Shown: piece by piece, positions 13,251 to 63,106 of the stretch | Position numbering within the stretch: position 1 is the stretch's first letter | How the letters are laid out: the number at the start of each line of letters is the position of its first letter | NCBI RefSeq assembly: GCF_004010195.1 | Contig: NC_057718.1 | Span: forward strand, 9,286,676-9,350,675 | Reading direction: 5' to 3' | Length of the DNA stretch: 64,000 bases | Source of the DNA: Chiloscyllium plagiosum | Taxonomy: Eukaryota | The notes under the pieces: model-generated | What the model saw: only the letters and a program-made list of their open reading frames with translations | Database searches by the model: none | What the model was told of the DNA's origin: nothing | Program-made: the position numbers and the translations under genes

Positions 13251-14218
13251 CAAGTGCACCCACTGCCCAAAGAGCTAGCTTTGAGAAAGGATTTCACTGG
13301 GTGGTGGATATACAATCGAAGTGGCAATCAATCTTCTGTCATACCTTGCTTAGGATGCAAGAACCTTGAGTATTAAGTACTCGACTGAGGCACAGGTGCA
13401 GTGCTAGGTTGTGTCCCAGTTTGAATATTACTCCACCTCTGGTCTTTGAGCAAGCTGTGCTCACTGTCCTAGATCTTGTGGCTTGGCCTCAAATTCTTTT
13501 CTCCAGTGAAGCACCTTAGATTATTTCATTATCTCCTTGATTTTAAACAGGCTGCAAGAGGAGATGGACCGGGGTGGTACTGAGGGTAAAGAATTTCACC
13601 TACAAGGTTTGGAGAGTTCGGCTTGCTCCCCTTAGAGCAAAGAAGAAGAAGCTGAGATTTAGTTGGAGTGCACAGCTTTAAGGCAAAATGGACAAAGCAG
13701 AAACATTCCTGTCCGATGGGGCAAGAGCTGGCAGGCACAGATTTGTGGTTTGGGGCAAGGGGAAGGTGAGGAAAATATGCTTTTTTTTGCAGTATGTGCT
13801 TACTGATTTGAAATTCTCTGCCTACAAGAGTGGTGAAAAAGAAGTCAATCAGGTGCAGTGAGCTAGATAAAGGAAATTAATTTACTGGGTTGTAAGAGAT
13901 GGAGAGCAAGAATGGGAGTGACGAGATTCCTCTGCAAGGAGCTAGCATAGGCTGACTGGCTTTCTTGAGTGCTTCAATGACACTTTAGAGAAGAGAGCTT
14001 TCTGATCAATGCATGGCCTGACATTCTACGAGGGAGGGTCAATGAATGAGAACAAGTCTCATCACCAAGTTAGCACATGTAGGAGGTGGACACTTCATGT
14101 GGAATGGCATCGAGATACCCTCTAGGAGTAAGTGAGGACTGCAGATGCTGGAGATCAGAGCTGAAAATGTGTTGCTAGAAAAGCGCAGCAGGTCAGGCAG
14201 CATCCAAGGAGCAGGAGA

Positions 14219-14252
14219 ATCGACGTTTCGGGCATGAGCCCTTCTTCAGGAA
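14219..14252 (-). ncRNA. Minimal hammerhead ribozyme, family A
   Basis: Minus strand: ttc-CTGAAGA-a-gggc tcat gccc-GAAA-cg-TC-gat. Confidence 0.8.
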
Positions 14253-14505
14253 GGAGGAAAGTGTGCCAAGCAGGCTAAGATAAAAGATAGGGAGGATGAA
14301 CTCTGGGCAGGGGCGTTGGAAATGCGATAGGTGGAAGGAGGTTAAGGTGAGGGTGATAAGGTGAGGGTGATAGGNNNNNNNNNNNNNNNNNNNNNNNNNN
14401 NNNNNNNNATCCATGTTCACATTTCAAACGAGTTTGTCTCTCTTTAGCCTTTTATGCCAAACTCCATCACAGCGGGCTTCAGTCTGTTCATTTCCCTCCA
14501 CTCCT

Positions 14506-14537
14506 TCCTGAAGAAGGGCTCATGCCTGAAACGTTGC
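14506..14537 (+). ncRNA. Minimal hammerhead ribozyme, family A (partner arm)
   Basis: CTGAAGA-a-gggc tcat gcct-GAAA-cg-TT. Confidence 0.7.
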
Positions 14538-14769
14538 TTCTCCTGTTCCTTGGATGCTGCCTGACCTGCTGCGCTTTTCCAGCAACACATTTTCAGACCG
14601 AGACACCCTGACCAGGAAGATCACAGAGTCGAAGCCCAATCTGCTGCGACCCTGAAAATCAAACAGGGATCCTGTCCTGATCACTACCCAGTGTTCACTT
14701 GCTAAAACACGTAGAATGGCTGAGGGCAGGACAGTGCCCAGTTGTATGTTTGCGCTTTATACAGGTGTG

Positions 14770-15260
14770 TAAAGATCAGCAAAGAGAAATATGGGCGCAT
14801 TATGGACAGAGACAGGAGGATTTACGATGGGAACTAGGGCCGTGGTGGAGAAGCTAAATCATATTTTTTTGTGCTTGACTTCACAGAGGAAGGTACCAGA
14901 AATCTCCCAGAAATAAACGAGATCCAAGGGACTAGTGGGAATGAGGAATTGAAAGAAATTGCCATTAGCAGAAAGAAAGTCGTGCTGGAGAAATGATAGG
15001 TCCGCAAGTTGGCAAACTCCCAGGACACAAAGCATTGAAATAAATGGCTACAGTGATTTTAAAAAAAAGGTATTGATGATCACCTTTCAAAATCCTGTGG
15101 CTTCTACAGCACGATCTGCAGACTGGAAGGTTAAATGTTACCCTACTATTTAAGAAAGAAGGGAGAGACAAAACAGGGGACTGTAGGTGTGTTCAGCTGA
15201 TGTCAGGACAATAGCAGCGAAAATATTCAGTCCATTATAAGGAGTGAGATAACGGGATAT
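14770..15260 (+). mobile_element. Old CR1 ORF2 internal fragment
   Basis: ADWKV..VT.LFKK..R..TG-like sequence (gactggaagg...ctatttaagaaagaagggagagacaaaacagggg). Confidence 0.65.
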
Positions 15261-15309
15261 TTAAAATATCTCAGAATATTTAGAATGTTTAGAATTCTAC
15301 TGAAAGTTA

Positions 15310-17240
15310 AGGAAATTCGACCTGTCCACAATAACTCTTACCAATTTTCATAGATGCACCACAGAAAACATCCTATCCAGATGCATCACACCTTAGTATG
15401 GCAACTGCTCTGCCCAAGACCATTAGAAACTACAGCGTGTTGAGAAGCAGCCCAGTCCATCATGAAAACAAGCCTTTCTTCCATTGACTTCAGTAAGGCG
15501 TTTAACAAGGTTCCACATGGTAGACCAGTTAGTAAGGTTAGATCACATGGGATCCAGGGAGAACTAGCCAACTGGATACAAACTTGGCTTGACGGTAGGA
15601 GACAGAAGGTGGTGGTAGTGGATTGTTTCTCGGGTTTGAGGTCTGAGACCAGTGGTGTGCCGCAAGGATCGACACTGGGTCCATTGCTTTTTTGCTACTT
15701 ATATAAATGATTTGGATGTGAATATAGGAAATATGATTAGTAAGTTTACAGATGACACCAAACTTAGAGGTGTAGTGGATAATGAAGGTTACCCCAGAGT
15801 ACAATGGGACCTTGATCAGATGGGCCAATAGGCTGAGGAGTGGTAGATGGAGTTTAATTTAGATAAAAGTGAGGTGTTGTATTTTGTTAAGACAAAACAG
15901 GACAAGACTTACAATTAATGGTAGGGCCCTGGGAAGTGTTGCAGAACAAAATGACCAAGGGATGCAGGTACATAGTTGCTTGAAAGTGAAGTCACAGGTA
16001 GACAGAGTGGTGAAGAAGGTTCATTGGTCAGAGCATTGAGTACAGGAGTTGGAAGGTCATGTTGCATCTGTAAAGTGCATTGGTTAGGCCACTTTTGGAA
16101 TACTGTGTTCAATTCTAGTCTTCCTGTAATAGGAAAGATGTTGTGAAACTTGAAAGGGCTTAGAAAAGATTTACAAGGATGTTGCCAGGATTAAAAGGTT
16201 TGAGCTATAGGGAGAGGCTGACTAGGCTGGGGCTGTTTTCCCTGGAATGTCAGAGGCTGAGGGGTGACCTTATAGAGGTTTATAAAATCATGAGGGGCAT
16301 AGATAGGGTGAATAGACAAGGTCTTTCCCTGGGGTGGAGGAGTCCAGAACTAGAGGTCATAGGTTTAGGGTGAGAGGGGAAAGATTTAAAAAGGGACCTA
16401 AGGGGCAACTTTTTCATGCAGAGACTGATGCCTGTGTGGAATGAGCTGCCGGAGGAACTGGTGGAGGTTGGAACAATTACAACATTTAAAAGGTGTCTGG
16501 ATGGGTCTATGTAAAGGAAGGGTTTTGATAGATATGGGCCGGGTGCTGGCAAATAGGACTAGATTAGGTTAGAATATCTGGTCAGTATAAGTTAGACCAA
16601 AGGGTCTGATTCCTTGCTGTGTAACACTATGACTCGCTGACTCCATCTGCACTTTGCCCTGCCTCAGGAAACCAGCCAACATCATCAAAGATCCCTACCA
16701 CCCGGTTATACTCTCTTCCACCCACTCCCATTGGACAGAAGATACAAACGTTTGAAAACACGCACCAACAGATTCAAGAAAAGCTTCTTCCCCGCCATTA
16801 TCAGACTTATGGATGGACCTTTTGTATATTAGAGGTGATCTATTTCCGCACCTTCTCTGTAGCTGTAACACGATATTCTGAGGTCAGGAAGGGTACTATA
16901 TGAATGCAAACTCTTTCCATACCTCTGAGTGGATTATCCCCAACTGGTCCACCAAGGTCCATATTGGAACATGAGATAGATCACTGATCAATCAGTAGGT
17001 GGGCTAAGCTGAGCTCTCCACTGCTCTGTGACCACTCACCTTTGGTTAAATATTGGGACACTCCTGATATACAGAGTTGCTCCCATTCCACTACCTCAAC
17101 TGTGGTGGGGTGGGAAATTTATTCTGATTCTGATTTATTACCCTGATGTACTTGTATAAGGTATGATTTGTCTGGTTGACACACAAAACACTACATTTCA
17201 CTGTATATCAGTACATGTGGCAATAATAACTCAAGTCAAA
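15310..17240 (+). mobile_element. Rex1/Babar fragment split by a CR1 (15486-16640) and an inverted insertion (16881-17119)
   Basis: RCTTENILSRCIT..YGNCSAQD at 15350-15420 resumes at 16640 (IIKDP.HP...RRYKRLKTRTNRFKKSFFP). 3' UTR at 17120-17240. Confidence 0.75.
15486..16640 (+). mobile_element. CR1 (HER1-like) RT to 3' end
   Basis: DFSKAFNKVPHGR, SGVPQGSTLGPLLF and RLRGDLIEVYKIMRG, plus the 3' UTR. Confidence 0.92.
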
Positions 17241-17259
17241 TATAATCATCTAATCGGAC

Positions 17260-18560
17260 AGATGTCAACATGACTTAGGAAGGGAAAGTCATGTTTGACA
17301 AACCAGGCTTTGTTGAGAACATTACCAACAGAGTCTATCTTGTCCCACCAGTGGCTGTGGTGAATTTGAGACAACTTTTCAAAAAGACACAAATGGGAAA
17401 CTACTGAAGATCATGGGATAGAGTATAATATACTGCTGAGGATTAAGAAGTGGTTACTGAGAAGGGGACGGACAGCAGGAAAAGATGGTAATTCATGGGT
17501 TAGCAGTCCATGACTGTAACACTCAGTGATTGGGCCCCAGCTGTTCACAATCGATATCAGAGTAGTGGCTGAATGTATTATTTGTAAGTTTGGATAAAAG
17601 AATGGCACTATGATATGTGACAATGATGCGGAGAGGTTTCGAGAGGCTGAGAGAATGGCCAAATTATGACGTGGGCTAAGTGTGAGATTATCCACATTGA
17701 TAGGAGGGAGAGATGTGTGGAGTATTTCTTAAATGACAAGAGATTGGAATGTGTCCTCGGGACCTAAGCTTGGATGTCACTGAAAATAAACAAGGAGGTG
17801 CAGTGAGCAATTGTGATGGCGAATTGGCCTTTATCACAAGAGGATTGAAGAACAGGCTCAAAGAGACCTTTGTTGAGAGTGTGGTGCTGGAAAAGCAGAG
17901 CAGGTCAGGCCACATCCGAGGGGCAGGAATTCCTGACGAAGGGCTTATGCCCGAAGCGTCGATTCTCCTGCTCCTTGGATGTTGCCGGACCTGCTGTGCT
18001 TTTCCAGCAACACACTCTCGACCCTAATCCCCAGCATTTGCAATCCTCACTTTCTCCTCAAGGAGACTTTTCTTCCACTATAGAACCTCAGTGACAACCC
18101 ACCTGGAACGAGCAGCGGTCCCTTACCTAAGGAAGGAGGTGCGTGTCATTGAGAGAGGCAGCAGGGGCTCATTGGACTTGTTCCTGGGATAGTGTGTGAG
18201 GAAAGGCTGAGGAGTCTGGGCCTGTATTCCCCAGAGAATAGAAGAGCCAGACAGGATCTGATAGACAGGACGGATGCAGAGAGGTGGTGTCTAGCACCAA
18301 GGCAACTCAAGCTCAGAACAAAATGTGCAAGGCATTAAGGTGCGTTGGAATGTTTTCACCCAGAGGGTGGAGAATCTTTGGAACTCTCGGCCCCAGCTAT
18401 CGAAGCTCAGTTGTTGAGTGCACTCAAGACAGAGATTGATTGATGTCTAGATACTGATGGCACGATAGGGTTTGGGGATAACAGATTGTGGTAAATAATC
18501 AGCCACAATCGATTTAAATGGTGGAGCGAGTTTGGTGAACGGAATGACCGACCCACACAC
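17260..18560 (+). mobile_element. Old, heavily decayed CR1
   Basis: gggaaagtcatgtttgacaaac, gggccccagctgttcacaatc.atatca, ttttcacccagagggtggagaatctttggaac. Confidence 0.7.
17871..18056 (+). mobile_element. PLE family A hairpin mini-element with hammerhead (core CTGACGA 17933-17939; GAAA mutated to GAAG)
   Basis: Inverted arms 17875-17927 and 17966-18019. Duplication ctcaaagagacctt (17857-17870) / ctcaaggagacttt (18057-18070). Confidence 0.85.
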
Positions 18561-22996: not shown

Positions 22997-24125
22997 ATGA
23001 TGTAGACGAGCCAATGTTGGACTGGGGTGGACAAGGTCAGAACTCAGAAGACACCAGGTTACAGTCCAACAGGTTTATTTGAAATCACAAGCTTTCGGAG
23101 CTCTGCCCCTTCATCGGATGAAGTGAGAGAGAAGCACGCAGGCACAGAATTTATAGACAGAGAGACCAATGAGCAGAAGAGATTAAAAGATCAAGTAAAT
23201 GGTGTGAGTGGGGTGTCTGTAGGCTGAATAATAGGTCTCTGCAGGTGATCAAGAGTGTCAGACAGTGTGAGTAAAGTGTCAACAGCTGAATAGCAAGCAA
23301 AGAGATGGCCTATAATCTGATTAAATGAGGCAGAGAGATAATTAGAGAAAATTAAAAATAAGGTGCTGCTGGAGACAAACCAAATGGCTGGAAGAACATG
23401 ATTATTATAAGAGTAGCATGATGAGGGTCTAACCAAAGGAACAAGGAATCCAAAACTGTACAAACTAATTAAGGTTGAGTGATCATAACAAGTTATCAAG
23501 GTGATGGTGTCAAAACAGGACAGTGAGGAAACTTTTACAGACACAGAACAGTGTGGTGGGATCACATGTAGTGTGATATAAAGCCAAGATCACGGTTGGG
23601 GCCATCTTCATGCGTATGGAACTTGGCTATCAGTCTCTGCTCGGCAATTCTGCGTTATTGTGTATCTCGAAGGCCACCTTGGAGGATGCCTACCCGAAGA
23701 TCGGAAACTAAAGGTCCTTGACCACGGGAGCGTTCCCCGACAGAGAGGGAACCGCTGCAAGACATGCCAGATCACCGGCATGGATACCTCCATCACACAT
23801 GGGAGCACCACCACCACGCTCATGGCAGTACTCATGTGGCTCGCCCAATGTTATCTATCCTATACACTGCAGGCAAGGATGCCCCAAGGCATGGTACATT
23901 GGTGAGACAATGCAGACCCAACGATACGAATGAATGGACACGGTGCAATAATCTCCCAGATAGGGGTGTTTCCTCCCAGTCGGGGAGCACTTCAGTGGTC
24001 AAGGACATTCACCCTTCGATGCTTGGGTAAGCGTTCTCCAAGGCAGCCTTCAGGATACACAACAACGCAGAATCGCCAATTCGAGATGGGTTCCATATGG
24101 GTTCATGTCACGCTACATGTAACCA
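22997..24125. mobile_element. Neptune-type PLE (family B): minus-strand 3' end joined back-to-back with a plus-strand GIY-YIG fragment
   Basis: Plus strand has NRCKTC and NVIYPIHCRQGCPKAWYIGET. 23640-23724 is inverted relative to 23995-24078. Left end has the family B pLTR with a degenerate hammerhead (ccgatga..gaaagctt, ~23089-23118 minus). Confidence 0.8.
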
Positions 24126-24129: not shown

Positions 24130-24770
24130 TCAGGATGGTTTGTGCCTTGGAGGGAAATTTACAGGGGGGTGTCTGCTGCCCTCATCTTTTGAAAGTGGTA
24201 GTGGTCCCATGTTTGGAAGGTGCTGGCTGAGGAGCCTTGGGTGCAGTGAACCTTGTAAATGGTACATGCTGCTGCTATTGAGGGTCAGTGGTGGAGGGAG
24301 TGGACATTGAAGTTGGTGCAATGGGAGCCAACCAAATGAGCTGCTTTGTCCTGGATGGTGTTGAGCTTCTTGAATGTTGTTAGAGCTGCACCCATCCAGG
24401 TAAGTGGGGAGTATTCCAAAGCACTCCTGACTTGTGCCTTGTCGATGGTGAACAGGGACAATGAATCTCAATATTTTATCTCAAGAGGTGTATGAAAAGA
24501 TTTGCTTCAGAAAATGGTTTTGTCTGAGTCACGCAGGAAGATTTCGGCTTCAGCACATCTCCGCAGAAGTTCCTCAGGGCAGTGTCCTAGGCCCAACTAT
24601 CTCCAGTTGCTTCATCAATGACTTTCCCTCCATCATATGGTCAGAAGTGGGGATGTTTGCTGATGATTGCACAATGTTCAGCACTGTTCACAACTCATCA
24701 GTTACTGAAGCAGTCCATGTTCAAATGCAGCAAGACCTGGACAGTATTCAAGCTTGAGTTGACAAATGGC
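24130..24770. mobile_element. Second CR1/L2-group LINE family: 3' part on minus (24130-24455), RT part on plus (24550-24770)
   Basis: [21 protein letters not shown]...GMFADDCTMF on +; KAQVRS..EYSPL.WMGAA..KKLNTIQDKAA on -. Confidence 0.8.
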
Positions 24771-25249
24771 AAAAAAGAACCATATGAAGACATAACAGTT
24801 TTCTTGGAGACATTGAGTGCTGTCAGCAGCCATTTTATTCAGATCACTAACGTGGTCATTACACGGAGGGAAGTTCCAAACCCTAAACAGGTCAGGAGTT
24901 TGTGAGGGAGAACAGTTACTCACAAGGAACTAAAGGGCAAAACCACAAGAAGGAGAGAAAGGGTGAAAGAGAAAAAGGCAGTGGGAGAAAGGAAAATTGG
25001 AGATATGCAAACATACAACTTAGAAGCAGAAGTAGCCCATTCAGTCCCTCAAGAACACTGCTCCATTCAAAAAAACCATGGCTGACCTGTCAGTGTTTTG
25101 AATTCCACATCCCATCTACCTCAATAATCTTTAATACCCCTGCCCAACAAAATGGAGGTCCTTGAGCGTGAAGAGAATAGAGTGTGAGAAAGAAAGAGAG
25201 AAGTGAATGAGGAAAAGAATGTCATAGAAAAGGGAAAAAGTATTCTTAC

Positions 25250-25607
25250 ATACGGATGAGGAGGAAACCACTTCTACTGGGACAACACATCCATCCTAGG
25301 ACAAACAGACACGCACGAGAACTCTTAGAAGCATGACATTCCAACCAGAAGTCTTTTACCACCCCCTGAGAAAAAGAACAGGAAATGTCATCACCATAGG
25401 AAATTATATCACCACTGGAAATAACATCACCAACTCAAGGAAACCAAAACACATAAATAGAAAGCGGGCTACACCACCAGTGCTTCATTCGGAAGCTCAC
25501 TGAAGATGTTACCTAGCGTGGTGACGAAACATCTGAAAACAAACCTTCCAGCTCAGCGAGCAAATCTATATCCAGAACCTCAACCTGAGCTATAATTCTT
25601 CTCAAAC
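25250..25607 (+). mobile_element. PLE family C (Poseidon-like) 3' fragment
   Basis: WDNTSILGQ...RELLEA remnant homologous to 1-561, followed by a pLTR with hammerhead. Confidence 0.8.
25497..25536 (+). ncRNA. Minimal hammerhead ribozyme, family C
   Basis: tca-CTGAAGA-t-gttacc tagcgt ggtgac-GAAA-ca-TC-tga; stem I tca/tga. Confidence 0.75.
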
Positions 25608-26771: not shown

Positions 26772-27318
26772 AGTGAATTTTGAGAAGATTTGTAGCTCAG
26801 CTTGAGGTTCTGGATATAGGTTTGCTCGCTGAGCTGGAAGGTTCATTTCAGATGTTTCGTCACCCTACTAGGTAACATCTTCAATGAGCTTTCAGATGCA
26901 GCACTGCTGATTAGATTAGATTACATTACAGCGTGGAAACAGGCCCTTCGGCCCAACAAGTCCACACCGACCCGCCGAAGCGCAACCCACCCATACCCTT
27001 ACATTTGCCCCTTACCTAACACTACGGACAATTTAGCACGGCCAATTCACCTGACCTGCACATCTTTGGACTGTGGGAGGAAACCGGAGCACCCGGAGGA
27101 AATCCACGCAGACACGGGGAGAACATCCAAACTCCACACAGTCAGTCGCCTGAGGCGGGAATTGAACCCGGGTCTCAGGCACTGTGAGGCAGCAGTGCTA
27201 ACCACTGTGCCACCGTGCCGCCCACATGTTTCCTATTTATGTGTTTGGGTTTGTTTAGGTTGGTGTTGTCATTTCCTGTCCTGAAAATGAACCTTTCAGC
27301 TCAGCGAGCAAACCTACA
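26772..27318 (-). mobile_element. PLE family C hairpin element interrupted by an HE1 SINE
   Basis: Perfect 13-bp TSD tctgtttgatatt (26759-26771 and 27319-27331). Long arm on minus; short inverted arm 27281-27320. Confidence 0.85.
26911..27225 (-). mobile_element. HE1-type V-SINE, young full-length copy
   Basis: Close reverse complement of 8282-8616, including the (aatct)n tail. Confidence 0.92.
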
Positions 27319-33340: not shown

Positions 33341-33839
33341 TTTTCACTGTATTCATGTGAATACATGGGACAATAGAGCTAATTCTAATTCTAATTCCTT
33401 TGCAACCAAGAGGAATATGTCCAAGCCTTGCATATTTCTCAATTAGCCTGGATTATGTGGGGCCAATTGTTCCCTACTGTTTTCTTCATGCCAACCCTAT
33501 GGCCAGCACTTGCCCAACCAATCTGCACCCATTTCTCCTGTGCTTCAAATGTGATTGTTGAAATTTGGCATTCTTGCAAATATCCTGATGAGTGCGAGAC
33601 AAAAAACCTCATCAACGTGTCATTCCTTTCAATAAGGGTCCAGGTCTGTATGACCCTGAGTCTGTCAGTTGGGGAACAGTAATTTTGCTACAATCATAGC
33701 TCAGAGGTTTGGAGGTCAGTGGGCAGTTTGAGAATTTAAATACAGTTGAACTAAAAAAAAACTGGTGTCAGCAAATCTGACCATCAATGTTGTCAGATGG
33801 TCTTAAATCTTCAAGAGAAGGAATCCTGTCACTCACACA

Positions 33840-33970
33840 AGATTTGTAGCTCAGGTTGAGGTTCTGGATTTAGGTTTGCTAGCTGAGCTGGAAGATTTGT
33901 TTTCAGACTTGCTGTCACCATACTAGGTGACAACTTCAGTAAGCCTCCGGATGAAACGCTGGTGATGTAG
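33840..33970 (-). mobile_element. PLE family C pLTR fragment, degenerate hammerhead
   Basis: Matches 26788-26910 (gatttgtagctcaggttgaggttctggat...gtcaccatactaggtgaca). Confidence 0.8.
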
Positions 33971-38460: not shown

Positions 38461-39303
38461 CATTTCTTGTCTTTTAACAGACTGAAAGTAGCCATTTCGT
38501 CCTCAAGAAGATTGTGGATGGGTTTCAATGGCTTTGGAGTTGTGTCAGTCTGGAATGTTGGGTAAAAGGTTGATGAGTGACTCAGCCTGACCCTTCACAC
38601 ATCACTTGTCCCTTTCTCATTACTGCAATCTAACAGGGTGCTCATCCATTCCCAGAGTCCCATTAGTCCCATTAACGTTGGCACCTCCAATCCAAGCCCA
38701 ACATCACCACCACCGCCCCTCTACCAACAATCGCCTGGCTCTCGCCACTTGTCAATTCGTTCCATTTCTGCTTATGGCATGTTACTGAGCACATCTTAGC
38801 TGTCTAGCACTGTGAAGGAAATGGGAGGATTGTCAAACACTTTGAAAGGAGCCTAAGGGCTCGGAAGGTGATGAGATTTTGTCCAATCATTAAGTGCAAT
38901 ATGCTCAAAATGATTGGGTTGAGAAAGAGTCATAGAGTCAAAGAGATGTATAGCACGGAAACAGACTCTTCTGTCCAACTCATCCATGGCGACCAGATAT
39001 CGTAACCCAACTGAGTCCCATTTGCCAGCACTTGGCCCATACCCCTCTAAACCCTTCCTATTCATATACCCATCCTGATGCCTTTTAAATGCTGTAACTG
39101 TACCAGCCTCCACCACTTCCTCTGGCAGCTCATTCCATACATGCACCACCCTCTGCATGAAAAAGTTGCCCCTTAGGTCCCAACAAGGATGAAGCCAGGG
39201 TTGGAGGGTTTGAGCTATAGGGAGAGGTTGAATTGGCTGGGGCTGTTTTCCCTGGAGTGTTGGAGGCTGGGGACTGCCCTTATAGATGTTTGTAAAATCA
39301 TGA

Positions 39304-39510
39304 TTTGGAGGTGCCGGTGTTGGACTGGGGTGTACAAAGTTAAAAATCGCACAACACCAGGTTATAGTCCAACAGGTTTAATTGGAAGCACATTAGCTTT
39401 CGGAGCGACGCTCACCTGACAATCACCTGATGAAGGAGCGTCGCTCCGAAAGCTAATGTGCTTCCAATTAAACCTGTTGGACTATAATCTGGTGTTGTGT
39501 GATTTTTAAC
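39304..39510. mobile_element. PLE family B hairpin mini-element
   Basis: Arms ~39333-39413 and ~39436-39516 are near-perfect inverted copies. Perfect 15-bp duplication tttgtaaaatcatga (39289-39303 and 39511-39525). Confidence 0.9.
39424..39460 (+). ncRNA. Minimal hammerhead ribozyme, family B
   Basis: cac-CTGATGA-a-ggagc gtc gctcc-GAAA-gc-TA; palindromic AGCT stem III. Confidence 0.8.
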
Positions 39511-40428
39511 TTTGTAAAATCATGAGGGGCTTGGATAGGATAAATAGACAAGGTATTTTCCCTGGGGTGGGGGAGTCCAGAACTAGAGGACATAGGTTTA
39601 GGGTGAGAGGGGGAAGATATAAAAGAGAACTAAAGGGCTAATGCTATAACCTATAACCTTTCAGTTCCATGTCAGGATATCTCATGAACAACATCCTGCT
39701 AATGAATGAAAACAGCGCTCAGGGTCTGGGGCTGTGGGTGATCCTTGAAATGATGTTTGTAGGGATATGTTTCTTCCTGTTTATCACGGTGATCTTTCCT
39801 GTATTGCAACGAGGAAGCAGTGGGCAACATCAAAGAGAGATCATTGCCATTGACAACTGGCTACTATAAAATGTCTGACAGAACAACACAAGCCCTTCAG
39901 AAATGTAGCAAAGGCTGTGCCTCATTTGCATTCAATTCCCTTATTACCTTCGATTCTGTTAATGATTGACAATGGTCTTGTGACCAAAAACCAGACTAAA
40001 GTCCGACTGTACATTGCCTGGCCTCATGAGCTCAAGCTGCCTTCCTGTGACTGACTAATCAATTCTGAATCAGCTGATTTTTTTGGGCTACTGATTAACT
40101 TTGATGTTATATTAGGACATTGATCCAACTGTGCACCCAGAGGCAACAGTTTACTCTCAAAACAGAGAGACAACCAGAGATTAAAAACATGCGCGGGGCT
40201 AATCGCTTTGTTTCCTGCTATATACTTCTCACCCAAATTGCTTCTCTTGCTTTGCCCCCACCCCCTCCACCTTAAAAACAATCTGATGCTAAATTATAGA
40301 TCCATGGGTAATGTGATGAAGATTGGCTCCTGCGATTCCTGCGCTTTGAAAAAGCATTGCTGCTGATGTATATTCTGGGGCAGTGCCAAGATAGGAAAAA
40401 GTGTTTTCGAAATGCAAGGCAAATACAG

Positions 40429-41353: not shown

Positions 41354-41830
41354 GAAGCAAAAAACAGAAATTGCTGGAGAAACTCAGCCAGTCTGGCAGC
41401 ATCTGTGGAATGAGAAACAGTGTTAACATTTAAAGTGCAGGGACAGCTCTGAAGAAGGACTCGAAACATTGTGGAGGAGTCAGTGATGATAATGACGTTG
41501 AATGGCAAATGGCAAGGGTCAGATTCTCACTCGTCTCTTCCCACAGACGGTGCCCAAGTGGGTGAGTTTCTCCAGCAATTTCTGTTTTTGGTTCTGATTA
41601 GCAGCATCTGCAGTTCTTTGATTTATTTTGGTTAGTTTTCCAAGTCCAACAGCCCATCCACCACAATCCTACTGCACTTTCAAGGGACTTACTGTACATT
41701 AAATTTTTAAAAACCGAAAGAACAGCGGATGCTGCTAATCGGAAACAAAAACAGAAATTGCTGGAGAAGCTCAGCAGGTCTGGCAGCAACTGTGGAAAGA
41801 AATCAGTCAATGTTTCAGGTCGAGTGACCC
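41354..41830. mobile_element. Two family-A-related PLE pieces (hairpin 41354-41630; single minus arm 41709-41830)
   Basis: aaaaacagaaattgctggagaaactca / tgagtttctccagcaatttctgttttt inverted arms; CTGAAGA...GAAA at 41449-41466. Confidence 0.75.
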
Positions 41831-42516
41831 ATAATAAACTGTTGATGCGATGGCTCATGCTGCAAAACACCAAGTGATAACCAACTCTGACGAGTGAGAA
41901 TCAGACCCTTACCATTTGCCATTCAACGTCATTATCATCACTGCACCCTCCACTATCAATATCCTGGAGGCTACCATTGACCAGATTCTGACCTGGACTG
42001 GCCATTTGAGTTTTCGGCTACAGGAATAGGCTAGAAGCTGGAAATGCTAAAGTGGAGAATTCACCTCTGGTCTCCCCACTGCCTCTCCACTGTTGTGTTC
42101 GGTCCCCAAGTGCCCAAATTATTAAAATTCTAAATGGAATAACACCCAAATTTTTATCCCCCTGAGAGAGTAAGGATAAATTGACTGTTTTCTTTAATCA
42201 ATCCCTCTCTTGGTTGGTTGCAACAATGTTAATTTGAGCGGGACCCCTTTTCCTTTGTGGACATCTTTTTTTTGTAGCCTCAAAGCCGTTTATGTTTCAA
42301 GAGGAGCCAATTTAACCAGGCTTCCTTGTTAAAGAGTGAGTCGTTTGTTGCTAAAGCCACAAGAAAAGATCATAAAATATGGCACACGCACACACACACA
42401 GACGGATTCGAAATGAGAGAAAAATGCAAAAGGTAAAGGTGAAATAAACGTCGATAATTCGGTGTTTGGCTTCTCTGTAACAGATAGATTGTGAGATAGT
42501 GGAGTCATCTCGAAGG

Positions 42517-42731
42517 TAGTCATGATTTGGAGATGCCGGTGTTGGACTGGGGTGTACAAAGTTTAAAAAAACCCACAACAACAGGTTATAGTCCAACAAG
42601 TTTATTTGGAACACTAGCTTTCGGAGCGCTGCTCCTTCATCAGGTGGTTATGGCAACCACCAGCACTCTGAAAGCTAGTGTTTCCAAATAAACCTGATGG
42701 ACTATAGCCTGGTGCTGTGTGATTTTTAACT
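42517..42731. mobile_element. PLE family B hairpin mini-element
   Basis: Inverted arms; 12-bp duplication tcatctcgaagg (42505-42516 and 42732-42743). Confidence 0.88.
42612..42646 (-). ncRNA. Minimal hammerhead ribozyme, family B (best-preserved copy)
   Basis: Minus strand: cac-CTGATGA-a-ggagc agc gctcc-GAAA-gc-TA-gtg; stem I cac/gtg. Confidence 0.85.
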
Positions 42732-43074
42732 TCATCTCGAAGGGTGATTCTAGAAACACTGACTTTGGTAGCTGAGCTCCTTCATTCTGCCATTACCTGA
42801 AGGGGGTTTGTCCAGTCGCCTTTGACTCGATTTATTTGCAGCAATTAGAGAAAAGATTGATGCCAAGGCAAAACTGCCCACTTGATGGGCACCACAACCA
42901 CCATTATTTACTTTAATGGTAGTGCAGGTTTAATGACAATGGACTAGTTGTCCAATAGTCCTGAATAATGCTGTGGGGGACAAGGGTTGAAAGCCCATAA
43001 CTACAGCCAATGGAATTTAATTTCTTTAAATAAATTTGGAATTAAATGTTAGTCTCTACAATTGCCACCGGTAG

Positions 43075-43835: not shown

Positions 43836-43886
43836 TCAGGGAAAGAAATCTGGTATCCTTTCCTGATTGACCTACATGTGACTCCA

Positions 43887-43984
43887 TATGATTTTGCCTG
43901 TCCTCGGATGCTGCCTGAATTGCTGTGCTCTTCCAGCACCACTAATCCAGAATCTGGTTTCCAGCATCTGCAGTCATTGTTTTT
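43887..43984 (+). mobile_element. PLE family A single-arm insertion
   Basis: 17-bp TSD acctacatgtgactcca (43870-43886) / acctacatatgactcca (43985-44001). Confidence 0.85.
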
Positions 43985-45330
43985 ACCTACATATGACTCC
44001 AGGCCTACACAATATGGTTTACTATTAACTGTCCTCTGAATTGGTCAAGCAAGCCACTTATTTGTGACAGTGACTGAAGGATAGAAATGGAATAACTCTA
44101 CACAGATCGCCCAAAGTCAACCTAGGTAATGTACGCTGTTGGTGTACCTACAGCAGATGGTTGGAATGGGTAAAGGGAGCACCTTCAAAAAGGGAATAAG
44201 GGATAAGTAATAAATACTGAGCCTTGCCAGGGATATTCACAGCATATGAAAGAATAAAGGAAGTATTTATTCCCTCCGCCAGCAGTTCTCAGTAACTGCA
44301 ATGTGTACTGTCCACAAGGTGCATCACAGAAATTCAACAAGTGTCCTTCAACAACACCAAATCCATGACGTCCACCACCTAGAAGGACAGGAGTAGCACT
44401 TGCAAGTGAACACCCCTGCAAGGTCCTTCTGAGACTTGGAAGTACGACTCCATTCCTTTAGGGTCGGTAAGTCAAAATCTTGGAACTCCTTCCATTACGA
44501 CACCGTCGATGTGTGGTTTGAAGCTGCTGAAGAAAGTGACTCAATTCTACCTTCTCCAGGGCTGTTAGGGCATGTAACGAATGTTGGCTTAACCAGTGAT
44601 GCGGACATCCGTGCATAAAAACTGAAGAAATACAGATAGATGCACATTCACACGCACGCACTACATACAAAATGAAATGCACACATATAATGATATGGGC
44701 CAGAAATTGTATTATCATTTACTACCTCCAGGGTTTCAGTTCTTTTGACAGGAATGAATATAATTGCCAACAATCCACATTTTCCACACTGAATTAAACC
44801 CAGTTATGATGCATCAGCACAGCAAGACTAAAACACCAATTAAGACAATTATTCAGGGAACAGATCAGACTACAATAACCTGAACTGCCATTTCACACAG
44901 TTTTTTTTTGATGGGCGCCAAATGTTTGCACTATAATTCACATTTCAAGTGAGGTTGCCTGGCCGGTTTGCAAAAATGGAATGACATTACTTGGCAGTCT
45001 ATCGGCAGAACAAAGAAATTGTGTTTGTCTCTCTGCTCCAAGCCCACCCTCTCCATATGTCTCATGGTATAGGCTGAACATACAACAAGAAATTGCATTA
45101 CTATAGCCTTTTCAAATGCAACTACCCCCCCCCCCCCCCCCCCCCCTGTGAGCATCGCCGGTAAGGCCAGCATTTGTTGCACATCCCTTATTACCTTTTG
45201 TTTGGAGGCAGATGTAGGCCAGACCAAGTAAGGACGGCAAATTTCCTTCCCTAAAGGGCATTAGTGAACCCAATCCAGTTTTTACAACAACCAATGACAG
45301 CTCACAGTCACTGCTGCCAATTCCAGATGA

Positions 45331-45933
45331 AGTTAAAAATCACACAAAACCAGGTTATGGTCCAACAGGTTTATTTGGAAGCTCTAGCTTTCGGAGCGTC
45401 GCTCCTTCATCAGGTGGTTGTGAAGGACATAAGACACAGAATTTACAGCATTTTTTGTTCTATAAATTCTGTCTTATGATCCTGTTCCATAACCACTTGA
45501 TGAAGGAGCAGCGCTCCGAAAGCTGGTGCTTTCAAATAAACCTGTTGGACTATAACCTGGTGGTGTGTGATTTTTACCCAGAGAGTGGTGGGGGCATGGA
45601 ATGCGCTGCCTGTGGGAGTGGTAGAGTCAGAATCTTTGGTGACCTTTAAGTGGCAATTGGATAGGTACATGGATGGGTGCTTAAGCTAGGACAAATGTTC
45701 GGCACAACATCGTGGGCCGAAGGGCCTGTTCTGTGCTGTATTGTTCTATGTTCTATAAAGTGAGGACTGCAGATGCTGGAGATCAGAGTTGAAAGTGTGT
45801 GGTGCTGGGAACGCACAGCAGGGCTTCATCTGGGCTCCTGCCTGAAACGTCGATTCTTCTGCTCCTCAGATGCTGCATGACCTGATTTTTAACTTCGTCC
45901 ACCCCAGTCCAACACCACCTTCTCCACATCATG
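45331..45933. mobile_element. PLE family B hairpin with nested CR1 3' end (45577-45756) and family A mini-hairpin (45757-45882)
   Basis: 12-bp TSD aattccagatga (45319-45330 and 45934-45945); inner duplication tgattttta. Confidence 0.85.
45382..45416 (-). ncRNA. Minimal hammerhead ribozyme, family B
   Basis: Minus strand: cac-CTGATGA-a-ggagc gac gctcc-GAAA-gc-TA. The plus-arm partner is mutated (ttgatga; cleavage site TG). Confidence 0.75.
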
Positions 45934-46499
45934 AATTCCAGATGACTAATTGAATTTGAATTCCACCAGTGGATCAATTTGAGCCCAAGTATTAGCCTAG
46001 GACTGTGGTTCAATAAGCAGTGACATTACCATTCCATTGCCATCTCCCCCAGTATTCAAACAGCCTGCTTCTGGGCATAGCAAGCAATGAAATACAGTAC
46101 TCTGTCAAAGTTCCTTAGCTTTTGTTGTCTACGGGACACTCAAACTTGTTTCGGTTAACACAGAGTGAAGGGATTTGGCTGGAGACTGCTTCTTTATGGC
46201 TCCCATGGAGGAGCTTGTGGTAGATCCTCCACTCATCCATACATGGGTACCATAGCTTCAACCTTGTCTCTTGCACTGGACTCCTCCCTCATTAGAGATG
46301 GAGATATTAATGGATTCTCCTCATTAGTTGTTTAATTGTCGAACACCATTCATGGCTGATTGTGGCAGCACTGCAGAGCTCAGACCTGTCCATCACATGC
46401 TGCTTCCACTATTGAGCACACAAGCAATCTAGTTGTGGAGCCACACTAGGTTGGCAAACTATTTTTAGGTATTCTTGATGCAGCTCCCAGCATGTCTTG

Positions 46500-47377: not shown

Positions 47378-47980
47378 AGGAGCTGGGAGGTCATGTTGTG
47401 GCTGTACAGGACTTTGGTTAGGCCACTGTTGGAATATTGCGGACAATTCTGGTCTCCTTCCTATCGGAAAGATGTTGTGAAACTTGAAATGGTTCAGAAA
47501 AGATTTACAAGGATGTTGCCAGGGTTGGAGGATTTGAGCCATAGGGAGAGGCTGAACAGGCTGGGGCTGTTTTCCCTGGAGCGTCAGAGATTGAGGGGTG
47601 ACCTTATAGAGGTTTACAAAATCATGAGGGGCATGGATAGGATAAATAAACAAAGTATTTTCCCTGGGGTCGGAGAGTCCAGAACTAGAGGGCATAGGTT
47701 TAGGGTGAGAGGGGAGAGATATAAAAGAAGCCTAAGGGGCAACTTTTTCACACAGAGGATGGTACGCGTTTGGAATGAGCTGCCAGAGGAAGTGGTAGAG
47801 GCTGGTACAATTGCAACATTTAAAAGGCATTTGGATGGGTATATGAATAGGAAGGGTTTGGAGGGATATGGGCCGGGTGCTGGCAGGTGGGACTAGATTG
47901 GGTTGGGATATCTGGTCGGCATGGATGGGTTGGACCGAAGGGTCTGTTTCCATGCAGTACATCTCTATGACTCTATGACT
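47378..47980 (+). mobile_element. Young CR1 (HER1-like) 3' fragment with uninterrupted ORF2 C-terminus
   Basis: ORF 47312-47896 (LYRTLVRPLLEYC.QFWSP...RLRGDLIEVYKIMRG...FFTQRMVRVWNELP); (tctatgac)2 tail. Confidence 0.93.
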
Positions 47981-49135: not shown

Positions 49136-49337
49136 TCAACAGATGTGAGGCTGGAAAAGCACAGCATGTCAGACAGCATCCAAGGAGCAGGAGAGTCAAG
49201 GGTTCCAGCTGAAACTTCATTAGATTGACCTGAAACATTGACTCTCTGCTCCTCGGATGCTGTCTGACCTGCTGAGCTTTCCCAGCTTCACATCTACTGA
49301 CTCTTGCTTCTAGCAGCTGTGGTCCTTACCTTATCCC
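49136..49337. mobile_element. PLE family A hairpin, degenerate
   Basis: agatgtgaggctggaaaagc...gctttcccagcttcacatct inverted arms; degenerate duplication gga.acaatgg. Confidence 0.75.
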
Positions 49338-49470
49338 AGCACGGACACAATGGGCCATAGAGCCTACGTTGTAACCAACCAACAATTCTATGTCACGTAT
49401 GCTCTTTTCAAAGTCTTACTGGCTGCTGAAGCTTCACCTTGAGATGTTTCGCTCAGTGGTAATTTACTAT

Positions 49471-49807
49471 TGTCGAGAGTATTGTGCTGGAAAAGCACAG
49501 CCGGTCAGGCAGCATCCGAGGGGCAGGAGAATTGACGTTTCGGAAAAAGGCCCATCATCAGGAAGGAGGCTGGGATCCTCCGGGGTGGAGACATAAATAG
49601 GAGGGGGTTGGGGCTGCAGGAAAGGTAGCTGAGAGTGCAATAGGTAGAGAGAGATGGGGGGTAAAGGTGATAGGTCGGACGGAAGGACCTCAATCCTGTT
49701 GAAGGGCTTTTTCAATTCTCCTGCTCCTCTGATGCTGCCTGACCGGCTGTGCTTTTCCAGCATCACACTCTCAACTCTAGTCTCCAGCATCTGCAGTCCT
49801 CACTTTC
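49471..49807. mobile_element. PLE family A hairpin; minus-strand hammerhead core at ~49532-49563
   Basis: Inverted arms; minus CTGATGA-t-gggcctttttcc-GAAA-cg-TC; degenerate duplication gctc.gtg...t.actat. Confidence 0.82.
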
Positions 49808-59140: not shown

Positions 59141-59321
59141 GTATTATTTCAAAGTGCTATGACGTTTTGTCAGGTGTAATGCACAAACACTTCAGGGAGC
59201 TGGTTCAGGCATACCTGCTCCCTTCAGAGTCATCAGACTTCTTGTCTCCACCCACTCATGTCAAAAGTGAAATGGGTGGAGCCAATGTCACTCAAATATT
59301 AACCCTTTCACATCCACTAGG

Positions 59322-59662: not shown

Positions 59663-60719
59663 CCAACACATTTTGGGATTGAGCATCCAGTGGACAAGGA
59701 AGCACATATGGAAGGGGATGGAGGGATGGGACTGCAGGGAGCAGAAAGTAAAGGGATCCCTCCGTCAGCTGGAAGGTTGCTCTGGATCAGACTGTTGCTA
59801 ACAGCACGGGGTTCGAACCCCATTTTGCTCGGGGATGGAATGCCAGACGTGGGAGCTACAACCGGCTCAGGAAAGGACCTCCCAAGTCACAACATGGAAT
59901 TAAAATCGGAGGAGGAGGAGATTTGAGGCCTGTACATGTCAGTCTCAGTGAGTGACCATGAGGTGCTCTCAGTGTGCTCAATCCGTTCCGCCCTGCAATC
60001 ACAACACAATTCCAGTCTTTAAGAGGGATTTAGGGTGGAAACAGCAAGGTTTATTGAGAAGGAATAGGATCAAAGAGACAGGGATCAGGATTATGAGCTT
60101 AGCAAACTGTGAGCTCAGTGTGATGGGAGGTGTAGCTTCTTTTTGTTACCAATTTTTTTTTGCTTAAGCTTTAGCTCCTCTTCTGAGCCCTGCCCTGTCT
60201 TTATTCTGTTTTTCCCCAAAAAATAGTGTTTTCTTTTAAATTTCAGTCTTCTTAAAGCTTTGATTATTGTGAAGGGTTTGGGGGTGGGGGGCAGGTGGGG
60301 AAGTGAGGTGTTAGTCTCATGATGTAGGGTGGTCCAACAACCTTTCTCTGTCCTGAGCTTAAGTCATTTACCCTGAGCAAACCTATGCAGACAGGCTATT
60401 CCACTGTAGGCACCATCACATCTCAGCCTGATCCTGACCATCGACCGAGAATGTGCAAGATCCAGAGAGTGGATCAAACATGGAACTCACTATCACAAAG
60501 AGAGCTTAAAACCAACACCACAAACCAGGAGAAGCTAGATACACACAGAGACAAAAGCAAGACAGGGAAGCACTGAGAGATTGGGATAAGAACACAAGTG
60601 AGGCTTAAATGCCCTTTATTCCTTCTTCAATTTTCTCCTCTCTCTCCTTCTGGTCAGCATGCATGAATTGGACTGAAAATTCTGTTTCTGTGCTGTATAT
60701 CTCTATGACCATATGATTC

Positions 60720-61500
60720 TATTACCATGGAAACAGACCCTTCGATCCAACTCATACATGCTGACCAAATATCCTAAATTAATCTAGCCGCATTGTCAGT
60801 ATTTGGCCCATATCCTTCTAAACCATTCCTATTCATGTACCCCGATGCCTTTTAAATGTTATAATTGTACCAGCCTCCACCACTTCCTCTGGCAGCTCAT
60901 TCCACTCACGCACCACCCTCTGCATGAAAAAGTTGCTCCTCAAGTCCCTTTTAAATCCTTCCCCTCTCACCTTAAACCTATACATTCAAGTTTTGGACTC
61001 CTCCACCCTGGGGAAAAGGCCTTGGCTACTTATCCTATCCATGCACCCCCATGTGGGTGATACGGTGGCTCAGTGGTTAGCACTGCTGCCTCACAGCACT
61101 AGGGACCCAGATTCAATTCCGGCCTCGGGCGACTGTCTGTGTGGAGTTTGCACATTCTCCCAGTGTCTGCGTGGGTTTCCTCCGGGTGCTCCGGTTTCCT
61201 CCCACAGTCAAAGATGTGCAGGTCAGATGAATTAGCCACGCTAAATTGCCCATAGTGTTAGGTGCATTAGTCAGGGTAAATATAGGGTCGGGGAATGGGT
61301 CTGGGTGGGTTTCTCTTCAGAGGGTCAGTATGAACTTGTTGGGCCGAAGGACTTGTTTCCGTACTGTAAAGTATCTAATCTAATGATTTTATGAACCTCT
61401 AAGGTCACCCTTCAGCCTCCAATGCTCCAGGTAAACAGCCCCAGCCTATTCAGCCTCTCTCTGCAGCTCAAACTCTCCAATCCCGGCCACATCCTCATCC
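60720..61500 (-). mobile_element. CR1 3' fragment interrupted by a full HE1 SINE (~61055-61383, +)
   Basis: CR1 cccccatg|attttat is split by a SINE with A/B boxes, V-domain and aatct tail. Confidence 0.88.
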
Positions 61501-62001
61501 TGAGGCCAAGGATACTGGGAGTCATGAACAGCCAGTGACGCATGACGTTTAGATTAAAAGTTCCACAATGGTCAACTATCTCAGTGCTATGCACCAGAAC
61601 AGAGGCTATGTACATTGAGTTCTTATGAATGAGATACTATATGATTTAGCACAGTTGGATAAAACTTGCTTGTGGAGTACTGTAGCTTAATCAGCCGTTA
61701 CCATTTAGATCACATTGTGTCAGCCTGAGTAAGCTATAGTTGGAACGTCTCAATATTAAATAATGTTACAGAGCATGTATTTTCACATTCATTATAATTT
61801 GAAAGGCTGCTTAGTTATCACAATTTTGTTTTTTAAGCCATTATCTCTGTGGCTTGTTCCTAAGGTTCCTTCTCTTGATTTTATTCACGGCCAAAACTGG
61901 TATTTGCTACCTCAATCCCAGTTGCCCTCAGCTTACTAGGGGCATTTCCAAAGGCAGTTAAAAGTCAACCTCATTGCTGTGGGTCTTGAGTCACGCGTAG
62001 G

Positions 62002-62224
62002 AGAAAGTGAGGACTGCCGATACTGGAGAGTCAAAGTCAAAAAGTGAGGTCACTGGAAAAAGCACAGCAGGTCAGGCAGCATCCGAAGAGCAGGAGAATC
62101 GATGTGTCAGGCATAACCTTTCATCAAGATTTCCTGCTGAAGGACTTATGTCCAGAACATCAACTCTCCTGCTCCTCGGATGCTGCCTGACCTGCTGTGT
62201 TTTTCCAGCGCCACACATTTCAAT
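62002..62224. mobile_element. PLE family A hairpin, degenerate hammerheads
   Basis: Inverted arms; duplication ttgagtcacgcgtagg / ttgaagtcacatgtagg. Confidence 0.82.
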
Positions 62225-62751
62225 TTGAAGTCACATGTAGGCCAGACCAGAGTAGCGCAGCAGATTTCCTTCTCTTAAAGGACGTGAGAGAATCAGTTGG
62301 GTTTTAAACGTTAATGCTAGCTGTCACAATCGCCATCAGTGAGACTTGCTTTATACTCCACATTTTTCTTTATATGTTTTTCATGGACTAGACCAGACCT
62401 CCACAAAATATATTACGACGGTTGCCTAGACCCTAATGTTTTCTTACTTTACAGATAAATTTGAAGTGCTGCGCTTCAGATGTAATATGATTAGTCAACT
62501 TACTAGATGTTAATCAAAACACAATTTATTCAAATATTATAGTTAAAATTCAACTAAAAGAAAAAGGAACTTGGAAAAACTCTGTTGGAAAACTTAATAG
62601 AATAATAGATAGAGTAACTATTACTAATTAACTGTTCCATTATAGTAACATCTCATAAACACACCCCTTGGCAAAAGGCAAATCTAGAAAACAAATTTTG
62701 TCTCACATGCAGTTCTCTAATCCAGGAGGAAAGAACATCAAGAAACAATTG

Positions 62752-63106
62752 TTTCTGCATGGGTTTCCCCGTATCTGTGTGGATTTCCTCCTGGTATTCT
62801 GGTTTCCTCCCACAATCCAAAGTTGTGCAGGTTAGGTGAATTGGACATGTTAAATTGCCCATAGTGTTAGTTGCATGAGTCAGGGGTAAATATAGGGTAG
62901 AGCTGAAAATGTGTTGCTGGAAAAGCGCAGCAGGTCAGGCAGCATCCAGGGAACAGGAGAATCGACGTTTCGGGCATAAGCCCGGGCATATAGGGTAGGG
63001 GAGTGGATCTGGGTGGGTTATTCTTTCAAGGATCGGTGTGGACTTGTTGGGCCAAAGGGCTTGATTTCATACTGTAGGGTATCTAATTTAATCCATCTAA
63101 TCTAAT
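62752..63106 (+). mobile_element. HE1-type SINE (5'-truncated) containing a PLE family A arm at 62901-62987
   Basis: Perfect 11-bp TSD atatagggtag (62890-62900 and 62988-62998). Confidence 0.87.

Follow-up and report, generated by a model that had tools for sequence, protein, structure and literature searches.

We analysed a 64,000-nucleotide (nt) window of the Chiloscyllium plagiosum genome (NC_057718.1:9,286,676-9,350,675, forward strand; assembly GCF_004010195.1), which contains short insertions of three repeat families, here designated A, B and C, that carry minimal hammerhead ribozyme motifs. We consider it likely that these are dead-on-arrival, 5'-truncated double insertions of three lineages of Penelope-like elements (PLEs), in which both strands of the target were primed and the 3' ends of the two copies face outward. 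Outside a nested block at 41354-41960, 11 of the 16 insertions mapped by BLAST are (-,+) dimers, in agreement with the inverted repeats described in an original prediction on this stretch. That prediction had also held non-coding, tail-only copies to be a dominant product, and they are indeed the chief product in the window, mostly as inverted dimers, with two of the 16 insertions (88-555 and 23015-24116) keeping a remnant of an open reading frame (ORF). Target-site duplications (TSDs) of 11-17 bp, likewise expected, are present at nine of the 15 insertions tested, allowing at most one mismatch; four have none and one has a 6-bp match only. The TSD, of 11-15 bp, encloses the hairpin as a whole in seven window hairpins.

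Sites were mapped by BLAST, the queries being PLE 3' ends from full-length copies at other loci of the same genome (3.56 Gb in 101,977 contigs), and 15 of the 17 sites originally listed matched the 3' ends of the three families. Each family could be tied to an ORF encoding reverse transcriptase (RT) or GIY-YIG endonuclease elsewhere in the genome, which supports the proposal that they represent the 3' ends of three PLE lineages with GIY-YIG; the ends of all three matched PLE 3' termini. In family A, the RT-endonuclease ORF of one locus (L066), which aligns with residues 544-881 of an amphioxus PLE-like protein (P0064; E = 9e-52), continues directly into the A tail in each arm of an inverted pair. 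In family C, a GIY-YIG-coding stretch at locus L028 is followed ~300 bp further on by a C core, and both this locus and positions 88-379 of the window align to residues 691-788 of a turtle relative (P0025).

The evidence for family B centres on locus L055, which has an RVT_1 match at 664-2295 (Pfam, E = 6.4e-8). Its RT protein has 508 relatives, the nearest being shark proteins with 80-89% identity; those with 38-45% identity occur in turtles, amphioxus, molluscs and echinoderms, and many relatives with ~37-45% identity carry both RVT_1 and GIY-YIG. The downstream frame contains a CCHH-like linker and a GIY-YIG-like block, and L055:2184-2672 aligns with residues 633-795 of P0025 (41% identity, E = 2e-39), in which Pfam places GIY-YIG at residues 695-760. 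Of 20 loci retrieved with the RT protein, 16 carry a B-type core on the same strand as the ORF; where coordinates were compared, it is located downstream of the RT match by ~1 kb. A single locus (L009) has the layout of pseudo-long terminal repeats (pLTRs), with two direct B cores 2517 bp apart, homologous flanks and a frameshifted ORF between them; the ORF pieces gave a weak RVT_1 match only (Pfam), and this copy has a deletion of ~1 kb that takes in the endonuclease. Pairs of family A cores in direct orientation, spaced by 2.4-3.8 kb (L037-L040), were considered as pLTRs and rejected as segmental duplications or unrelated sequences, and long open frames in L064 and L065 were discounted as N runs read as X.

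Genome-wide, the exact core patterns occur 61,357 times in family A, 12,631 times in family B and 1,428 times in family C, with no match to any of the reversed-pattern controls. The window had been described as a cluster, which holds for families B (two strict-pattern cores in the window vs one per 281 kb) and C (one vs one per 2.5 Mb), but not for family A, which is at the genome average (one in the 64-kb window vs one per 58 kb).

Hairpin anatomy and its possible origins

The fragments consist of the last ~80-250 nt of an element, comprising the minimal hammerhead, ~60-65 nt leading to the first reverse-transcription start site (the short end, ~80-95 nt from CUGA), and an optional 30-40 nt. 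The 3' ends are accordingly bimodal, falling 78-102 or 113-126 nt after CUGA in family A, 79-104 or 119-131 nt in family B and 73-78 or 97-150 nt in family C, and the two classes, 30-40 nt apart, represent the optional PLE 'tail' in all three families. The family B tail extends as far as the start codon of the ORF, and the hammerhead lies ~120 nt upstream of that codon.

Arm statistics were drawn from 283,445 non-N bases, made up of the window and of loci mostly chosen by an intact core, and arms less than 700 bp apart were treated as adjacent. Outward-facing (-,+) pairs make up 26 of the 32 adjacent pairs, including 8/8 in family B and 3/3 in family C; the family A pairs are (-,+) in 15 cases, (+,-) in three and on the same strand in three. 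The first 100 genome matches to the strict A pattern include ten pairs less than 600 bp apart, and every one of these is (-,+). Exactly one arm is tailed in 23 of 25 hairpins (A 14/14, B 6/8, C 3/3), and for the 14 family A hairpins this would have a probability of ~6e-5 if the arms were independent. Solo A copies are tailed in 19 and short-ended in 17 of 36 cases. In most hairpins the arms are separated by 0-5 nt, and the inner junction is different in every hairpin examined. Identity between the two arms of a hairpin is 0.877-0.948 in family A, vs a mean of 0.853 over 73 cross pairs; in family B the values are mixed (0.975, 0.903 and 0.873, vs a cross-pair mean of 0.89). Private variants are common to both arms of hairpins A1, A5 and B2.

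We propose that the PLE endonuclease would make a staggered double cut, giving rise to the TSD of 6-17 bp, and that the 3'-OH of both DNA strands would then prime reverse transcription at internal start sites of the PLE RNA. The two cDNAs would extend toward each other, halt early and be joined, leaving a hairpin with outward 3' ends, of which in nearly all cases one is tailed and the other short; a solo copy would represent an event that lacks one of the arms. There is biochemical precedent in PAc, the Poseidon element of Anolis carolinensis, whose purified protein, a predicted dimer, cuts both strands of DNA and extends them, and whose reverse transcription begins at two internal sites bracketing the tail (Frangieh et al. 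2024, PMC11167929).

The one-tail rule would also follow directly from a single target-primed reverse transcription followed by fold-back, in which the 3' end of the cDNA snaps back and copies itself up to a tail protected by the ribonucleoprotein (RNP). Fold-back would account equally for the 0-5 nt between abutting arms, and its prediction that the tailed arm exceeds the other in length holds for 8 of 14 A hairpins. However, the short-ended arm reaches further 5' in five of these hairpins, with one tie, so that the prediction that the tailed arm should always be longer failed, and the solo copies are short-ended as commonly as tailed, which argues that the short end is also a genuine start site. 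As the published protein moreover extends both strands in vitro (PMC11167929), we regard fold-back as unlikely.

A pair could instead record two independent insertions, the second 5'-truncated copy having landed in or beside an earlier one either by chance or through a preference of the endonuclease for PLE sequence. Nicking of its own pLTR by the RNP has been proposed (PMC11167929), and nested repeats do occur in the window, such as 26909-27226 inside a family C hairpin and the complex 41354-41960 block. Nevertheless, the TSDs that enclose whole pairs, the prevailing (-,+) orientation, the one-tail rule and the private variants in common between the arms of A1, A5 and B2 make this a very improbable account.

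The original prediction described the hairpins as MITE-like, after miniature inverted-repeat transposable elements, and a hairpin or a tandem hammerhead unit might in principle propagate itself as a non-autonomous, MITE-like or retrozyme-like element, for example via circular RNA. The very high copy numbers would suit such an element, as would the sharp 5' boundary of family A described below, which could mark a defined short RNA; in the accessible part of a 2026 preprint, animal retrozymes are traced to PLE pLTRs (10.64898/2026.07.22.740005). Yet the description does not hold, because junctions and arm lengths all differ, TSDs range from 6 to 17 bp rather than being of fixed length, and the ends correspond to PLE reverse-transcription start sites and not to terminal inverted repeats. 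No junction is common to any two hairpins, which points to independent dead-on-arrival events and not to a propagating hairpin unit. Head-to-tail tandem arrays of these families were not found in the window (none of 11 Tandem Repeats Finder (TRF) rows overlaps them), and same-strand adjacent pairs number only 3/32 (A 3/21, B and C together 0/11). We therefore give self-propagation hardly any credence, and priming of both strands by the PLE machinery is the interpretation carried forward here.

Hammerhead motifs, 5' ends and transcripts

A plain scan of the window for CTGANGA...GAAA gave 17 matches. A strict descriptor of the kind that the original prediction had proposed as a check (CUGANGA, an optional bulge, a stem II of at least 4 bp, and GAAA) found six intact cores, compared to 0.07 +/- 0.26 expected from 200 dinucleotide shuffles, whose maximum was one. 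Both the extra base that follows CUGANGA and the G10.1-C11.1 pair are present in all six, and the families carry minimal type I motifs with their published hallmarks; stem II is broken in the cores at 488 and 49538. The stem II pairings, taken from the sequences themselves, are GGGC/GCCC in family A, GGAGC/GCUCC in family B and GUUACC/GGUGAC in family C, with double-sided changes at three of four alignable pairs. The stem III palindrome is ACGU in family A and AGCU in family B, but family C has both ACGU and the non-palindromic ACAU, each of them common. Opposite-facing hammerheads on the two arms are intact only in 14124-14598; every other hairpin has the motif truncated or mutated on at least one arm.

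The RNA of the 39298-39516 hairpin is predicted to fold into a duplex of ~90 bp (-153.7 kcal/mol, z -20.9), inside which the motif would be buried, a point that bears on the cleavage of host pre-mRNA envisaged in the original prediction. Formation of double-stranded RNA by hairpin copies is physically plausible. The sole Rfam matches resembled microRNAs (miRNAs) and fell on the perfect hairpins (MIR845_1 at 39378-39471 and mir-9 at 42594-42699); they were set aside as long-stem artefacts.

The 5' ends of family A show a sharp hot spot 4 nt upstream of CUGA. Arms start within -10..+4 of CUGA in 14 of 20 solo A arms and in 8 of 16 hairpin arms that had not been chosen by the A pattern, and in six solos the flank or TSD meets ATTCC at -4. 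Among 43,094 intact ATTCC-type cores in the genome, the base at -5 is the native C in 31,731 and non-native in 11,363 (26%); a hand count of the first 100 non-native cases gave ~55 G, 31 A and 14 T. In several family A solos the G preceding the -4 start belongs to the TSD, and it might reflect cap copying, microhomology or a target preference. The 5' starts of hairpin arms cluster at -13..+9 in family B; there is no such cluster in family C. Full family A copies read TCATTCC at the hot spot, which we take to resemble the consensus of an initiator (Inr) element. The Penelope element of Drosophila virilis has a promoter composed of an Inr and a downstream promoter element (DPE), with its start site shortly upstream of the hammerhead (PMC4209133; also the available portion of PMC2377424). 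The hot spot might be explained if an RNA with its 5' end 4 nt upstream of CUGA were copied by run-off.

Transcripts were sought by placing reads on 39100-45950 from two raw poly(A) single-cell RNA runs carrying the same species label, one contig set that is possibly RNA and one unclassified contig set that contains the stretch and is probably DNA. No RNA data set was listed as containing the stretch, and one of the RNA runs (X20) gave no placed reads. RNA reads are confined to the repeats, with none on the unique parts of this interval, and a fraction of 0.99 continue into unlike sequence and hence derive from other copies; for most poly(A) reads the source seems to be a single expressed copy, or a few, at other loci. 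Letter differences in the RNA mirror those in the unclassified contig set and hence do not bear on A-to-I editing. There are 181 and 176 reads that stop at 39484 and 39487, respectively, and continue as poly(A), 12-15 nt past ATTAAA, ~30 nt past the putative cleavage site of family B and upstream of both 3' ends seen in family B DNA. Upstream of 39419 and 39422, a further 144 and 254 reads, respectively, continue into a single consistent sequence that resembles a pLTR. At least one expressed family B copy is thus polyadenylated upstream of both DNA-level 3' ends, and uncleaved hammerhead RNA is present.

Several points weigh against our interpretation. The sample of arms and hairpins is not random, since most loci were chosen via an intact core; two of the 25 hairpins have no tail; and the likeness of the two arms stands out in some cases only, as for A1 (0.948) and B2 (0.975), and not for B3 (0.873) or B4 (0.903). 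Three of the 14 solo ends assigned to -4 (L001, L002 and L026) are artefacts of subfamily divergence, with different upstream sequence. In vitro, use of the start sites did not differ between the strands (PMC11167929), from which alone the one-tail rule would not be predicted. Pfam made no GIY-YIG call on the shark L055 fragment itself, so that the GIY-YIG link there rests on alignment to the turtle relative, and a genome-wide Pfam search for GIY-YIG yielded one marginal match only and was uninformative. The Rfam check put forward in the original prediction was negative, in that no hammerhead family (types I, II, III, HH9, HH10) matched the window at gathering score or even at E <= 10; published minimal hammerheads likewise required a custom descriptor (PMC4209133). 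Isolated monomer motifs form stem II yet are no stabler than shuffles (z -1.06 to +0.12), in keeping with published work that considers such minimal motifs to depend on a dimer or a protein (PMC4209133, PMC11167929). Finally, no pile-up of RNA ends was reported, in a poly(A)-primed single-cell library that is unable to capture cleavage products.

A broader and decidedly speculative proposal, which we think improbable as a whole, is that PLE integration would yield the mini-copies regularly, as a two-armed product. Both strands would be primed by a dimeric RNP with asymmetric use of the two start sites, which would explain the single tail of 23 of 25 hairpins, and the family A cDNA would run off the true 5' end of the RNA. 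The hammerhead would then mark the template's 5' end and, rather than mainly self-cleaving, might tie two templates to each other by way of its palindromic helix III. Since the RT start sites both lie downstream of the family B polyadenylation site, they would occur in an ordinary mRNA only in its 5' leader, and such an mRNA could template mini-copies only; full-length family B copies would need read-through into a tandem unit.

Insertions and other repeats in the window

The insertions are listed in Table 1. The copy at 88-555 lies beyond the range of the original prediction, and two sites assigned there to family A, 41354 and 41709, are A-like but belong to a diverged family inside a nested inverted structure. 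Interleaved with these A-like fragments is a 68-nt inverted repeat (41468-41535 / 41889-41956; 91% complementary, 353 nt apart) that is unrelated to PLE tails. Small extra pieces at the 5' ends of solo copies, GCCC (the inverse of the start of stem II) at 62983-62987 and CCTGATG at L020 1490-1500, resemble remnants of a second arm or of template switching.

Table 1. PLE-derived insertions in the window, with arms, hammerhead cores and TSDs
Family	Form (strand)	Coordinates	BLAST site	Arms and cores	TSD	Evidence
A	hairpin	14124..14598	14124	arms 14124-14358(-) tailed, 14501-14598(+) short end; intact cores 14226-14249(-), 14508-14531(+); central N gap 14375-14408	CGAGA[T/C]ACCCT, 14111-14121 / 14599-14609	BLAST, descriptor
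A	hairpin	17863..18058	17863	left arm (-) begins 33 nt past CUGA, without core; right arm (+) begins at -4, tailed, mutated core	11 bp, 1 mismatch	BLAST
diverged, A-like	nested block	41354..41960				weak self-BLAST match to A copies
A	solo fragment (+)	43887..43984	43897	without hammerhead core; tailed	17 bp, 1 mismatch, 43870-43886 / 43985-44001	BLAST
A	hairpin	45757..45884	45757	both arms truncated within or past core	not found	BLAST
A-type, diverged subfamily	hairpin	49136..49342	49144	truncated cores; right arm tailed	11 bp, 1 mismatch	
A	hairpin	49471..49807	49478	degenerate core 49538-49561(-); right arm tailed		BLAST
A	hairpin	61999..62228	61999	both arms begin 2-3 nt upstream of CUGA; left arm tailed; mutated cores		
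A	solo fragment (-)	62901..62987	62901	begins at stem II; short end	perfect 11 bp, ATATAGGGTAG	
B-type	large inverted dimer	23015..24116	23015	left arm (-): endonuclease-coding remnants 23554-23753, then hammerhead and tail 23015-23126; right arm (+) 23753-24116: endonuclease-coding remnants, 3' side cut off	not found	tblastn, BLAST
B	hairpin	39298..39516	39298	left arm tailed, begins within stem II; right arm with intact core 39427-39451(+), short end	perfect 15 bp, TTTGTAAAATCATGA	
B	hairpin	42516..42732	42516	left arm with intact core 42619-42643(-) and tail; right arm begins 17 nt into motif	perfect 12 bp, TCATCTCGAAGG	
B	hairpin	45330..45576	45330	two short ends, no tail; intact core 45389-45413(-); (+) core mutated		
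C-type	PLE 3' end (+)	88..555	88	GIY-YIG-coding remnant 88-379, then core 488-517 with one stem II mismatch		
C	solo fragment (+)	25239..25606	25239	intact core 25500-25529(+); tailed		BLAST, descriptor
C	hairpin	26772..27318	26770	left arm split by ~320-bp repeat 26909-27226; right arm ~40 nt	perfect 13 bp, TCTGTTTGATATT, encloses whole structure	
C	solo fragment (-)	33839..33966	33839	mutated core		BLAST

The window as a whole has a G+C content of ~44-47% and is very repeat-rich, with 502 self-BLAST pairs. Its commonest repeat, much more abundant than the PLE tails, is a family of up to ~1.15 kb that is probably a LINE (long interspersed element) 3' end or a SINE (short interspersed element), with copies at 6922-7284, 11200-11598, 12093-13251, 15487-16635, 32255-32922, 47378-47980 and ~15 other places. 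The family B hairpin at 39298-39516 interrupts an older copy of this repeat, and other copies are uninterrupted at that site (self-BLAST). Members of a second family of ~330 bp lie at 8279-8606, 10668-10995, 26909-27226, 61052-61378 and elsewhere; the 26909-27226 copy (90% identical) sits inside the family C hairpin and is therefore younger than it. A satellite with a period of 68-69 bp occupies 1146-2134 (~5 and 7 copies), and is followed by (TG)n on both sides of a gap at 2305-3256 (952 N), one of two N runs in the window. The other, at 14375-14408, falls exactly between inverted PLE arms, as do N runs in L041 and L042 (3.4-3.6 kb N), L064 and L065, although some of these N may not be assembly gaps.

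Pfam was applied to 66 of the window's 76 stop-to-stop frames with a length of 95 amino acids or more, and no host exon was recognised. The only match among these 66 was a sub-threshold RVT_1 fragment at 24452-24754(+) (28.2 bits vs a cut-off of 29.6), which adjoins the cut-off right arm of the 23015-24116 pair and probably belongs to a different retroelement.

Comparison with known systems and significance

The nearest analogy outside PLEs that we considered is the twin priming of L1, in which, as reportedly described by Ostertag and Kazazian in 2001, the second strand serves as primer and the inversion is flanked by one TSD. The two L1 segments come from different, adjacent parts of one RNA. 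Priming from the second strand is thus common to both systems, but in the shark hairpins both arms begin at the 3' initiation sites of the element and cover the same sequence.

The insertion anatomy of canonical endonuclease-bearing (EN+) PLEs is said to have been set out by Evgen'ev and Arkhipova in 2005. According to the accessible portion of Craig et al. 2021 (PMC8557442), it includes strong 5' truncation, pLTRs formed by partial tandems, an adjacent inverted and 5'-truncated copy, and a tail of 30-40 bp that is often at one end only, and such structures cause assembly problems. Truncation, pLTR, inverted copy, tail and gaps at hairpin centres are all shared by the insertions described here, although in these both arms are usually cut to ~80-250 nt, leaving a bare hairpin without an ORF, and the one-tail rule could be quantified (23/25).

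The motifs themselves closely resemble the minimal hammerhead ribozymes (min-HHRs) of metazoan PLEs (Cervera and De la Pena 2014, PMC4209133). They have in common the CUGANGA...GAAA core, one unpaired base between A9 and 10.1, the G10.1-C11.1 pair, a stem II of 4-6 bp that is paired but wholly different between families, and a helix III that is nearly absent and is a palindromic ACGU or AGCU. That study described thousands of dispersed single min-HHRs, as well as opposite-strand pairs 100-700 bp apart that it ascribed to truncated PLEs, with 4,000-9,000 copies quoted for coelacanth and Xenopus, compared to 61,357 exact-pattern cores in one elasmobranch family here. The likeness is one of sequence, and many family C copies differ in having the non-palindromic ACAU.

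PAc shares with the shark families two alternative 3' ends ~35-40 nt apart. Reverse transcription in PAc starts at sites just within the beginning of the ORF, to which the family B tail ending at the start codon provides a parallel, and cleavage and extension of both strands by PAc offer a possible route to inverted dimers (PMC11167929). In contrast, the PAc hammerhead overlaps the start codon, whereas that of family B lies upstream of it. Animal non-LTR retrozymes, the subject of Cervera and De la Pena 2020 (PMC7229834) and of the accessible parts of a preprint by Li et al. 2026, are likewise non-coding, hammerhead-bearing and PLE-related, but are arranged as head-to-tail tandem repeats and thought to move via circular RNA, whereas the shark copies are dispersed solos and inverted pairs.

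Opposite-strand dual min-HHRs 100-700 bp apart, inverted 5'-truncated copies and the one-sided tail are already described (PMC4209133, PMC11167929 and the accessible portion of PMC8557442). The copy numbers, the orientation, the one-tail rule, the family A 5' hot spot and the family B poly(A) site go beyond the published anatomy. No paper on hammerhead hairpins of shark PLEs was found in a limited literature survey, which did not cover Repbase or Dfam.

For annotation, the tens of thousands of short hairpins in the C. plagiosum genome should be treated as fragments of PLE tails, and not as miRNA precursors, MITEs or new ribozyme genes. Short hairpins of this kind are probably PLE tails in other elasmobranch genomes too. 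They also account for some assembly gaps. The genome also provides a very large natural record of PLE insertion products, in which the one-tail rule, the outward orientation and the sharp 5' ends represent in vivo footprints. These can be compared with the sole in vitro model, PAc, and may shed light on the resolution of PLE integration and on the function of the conserved but weakly active hammerhead.

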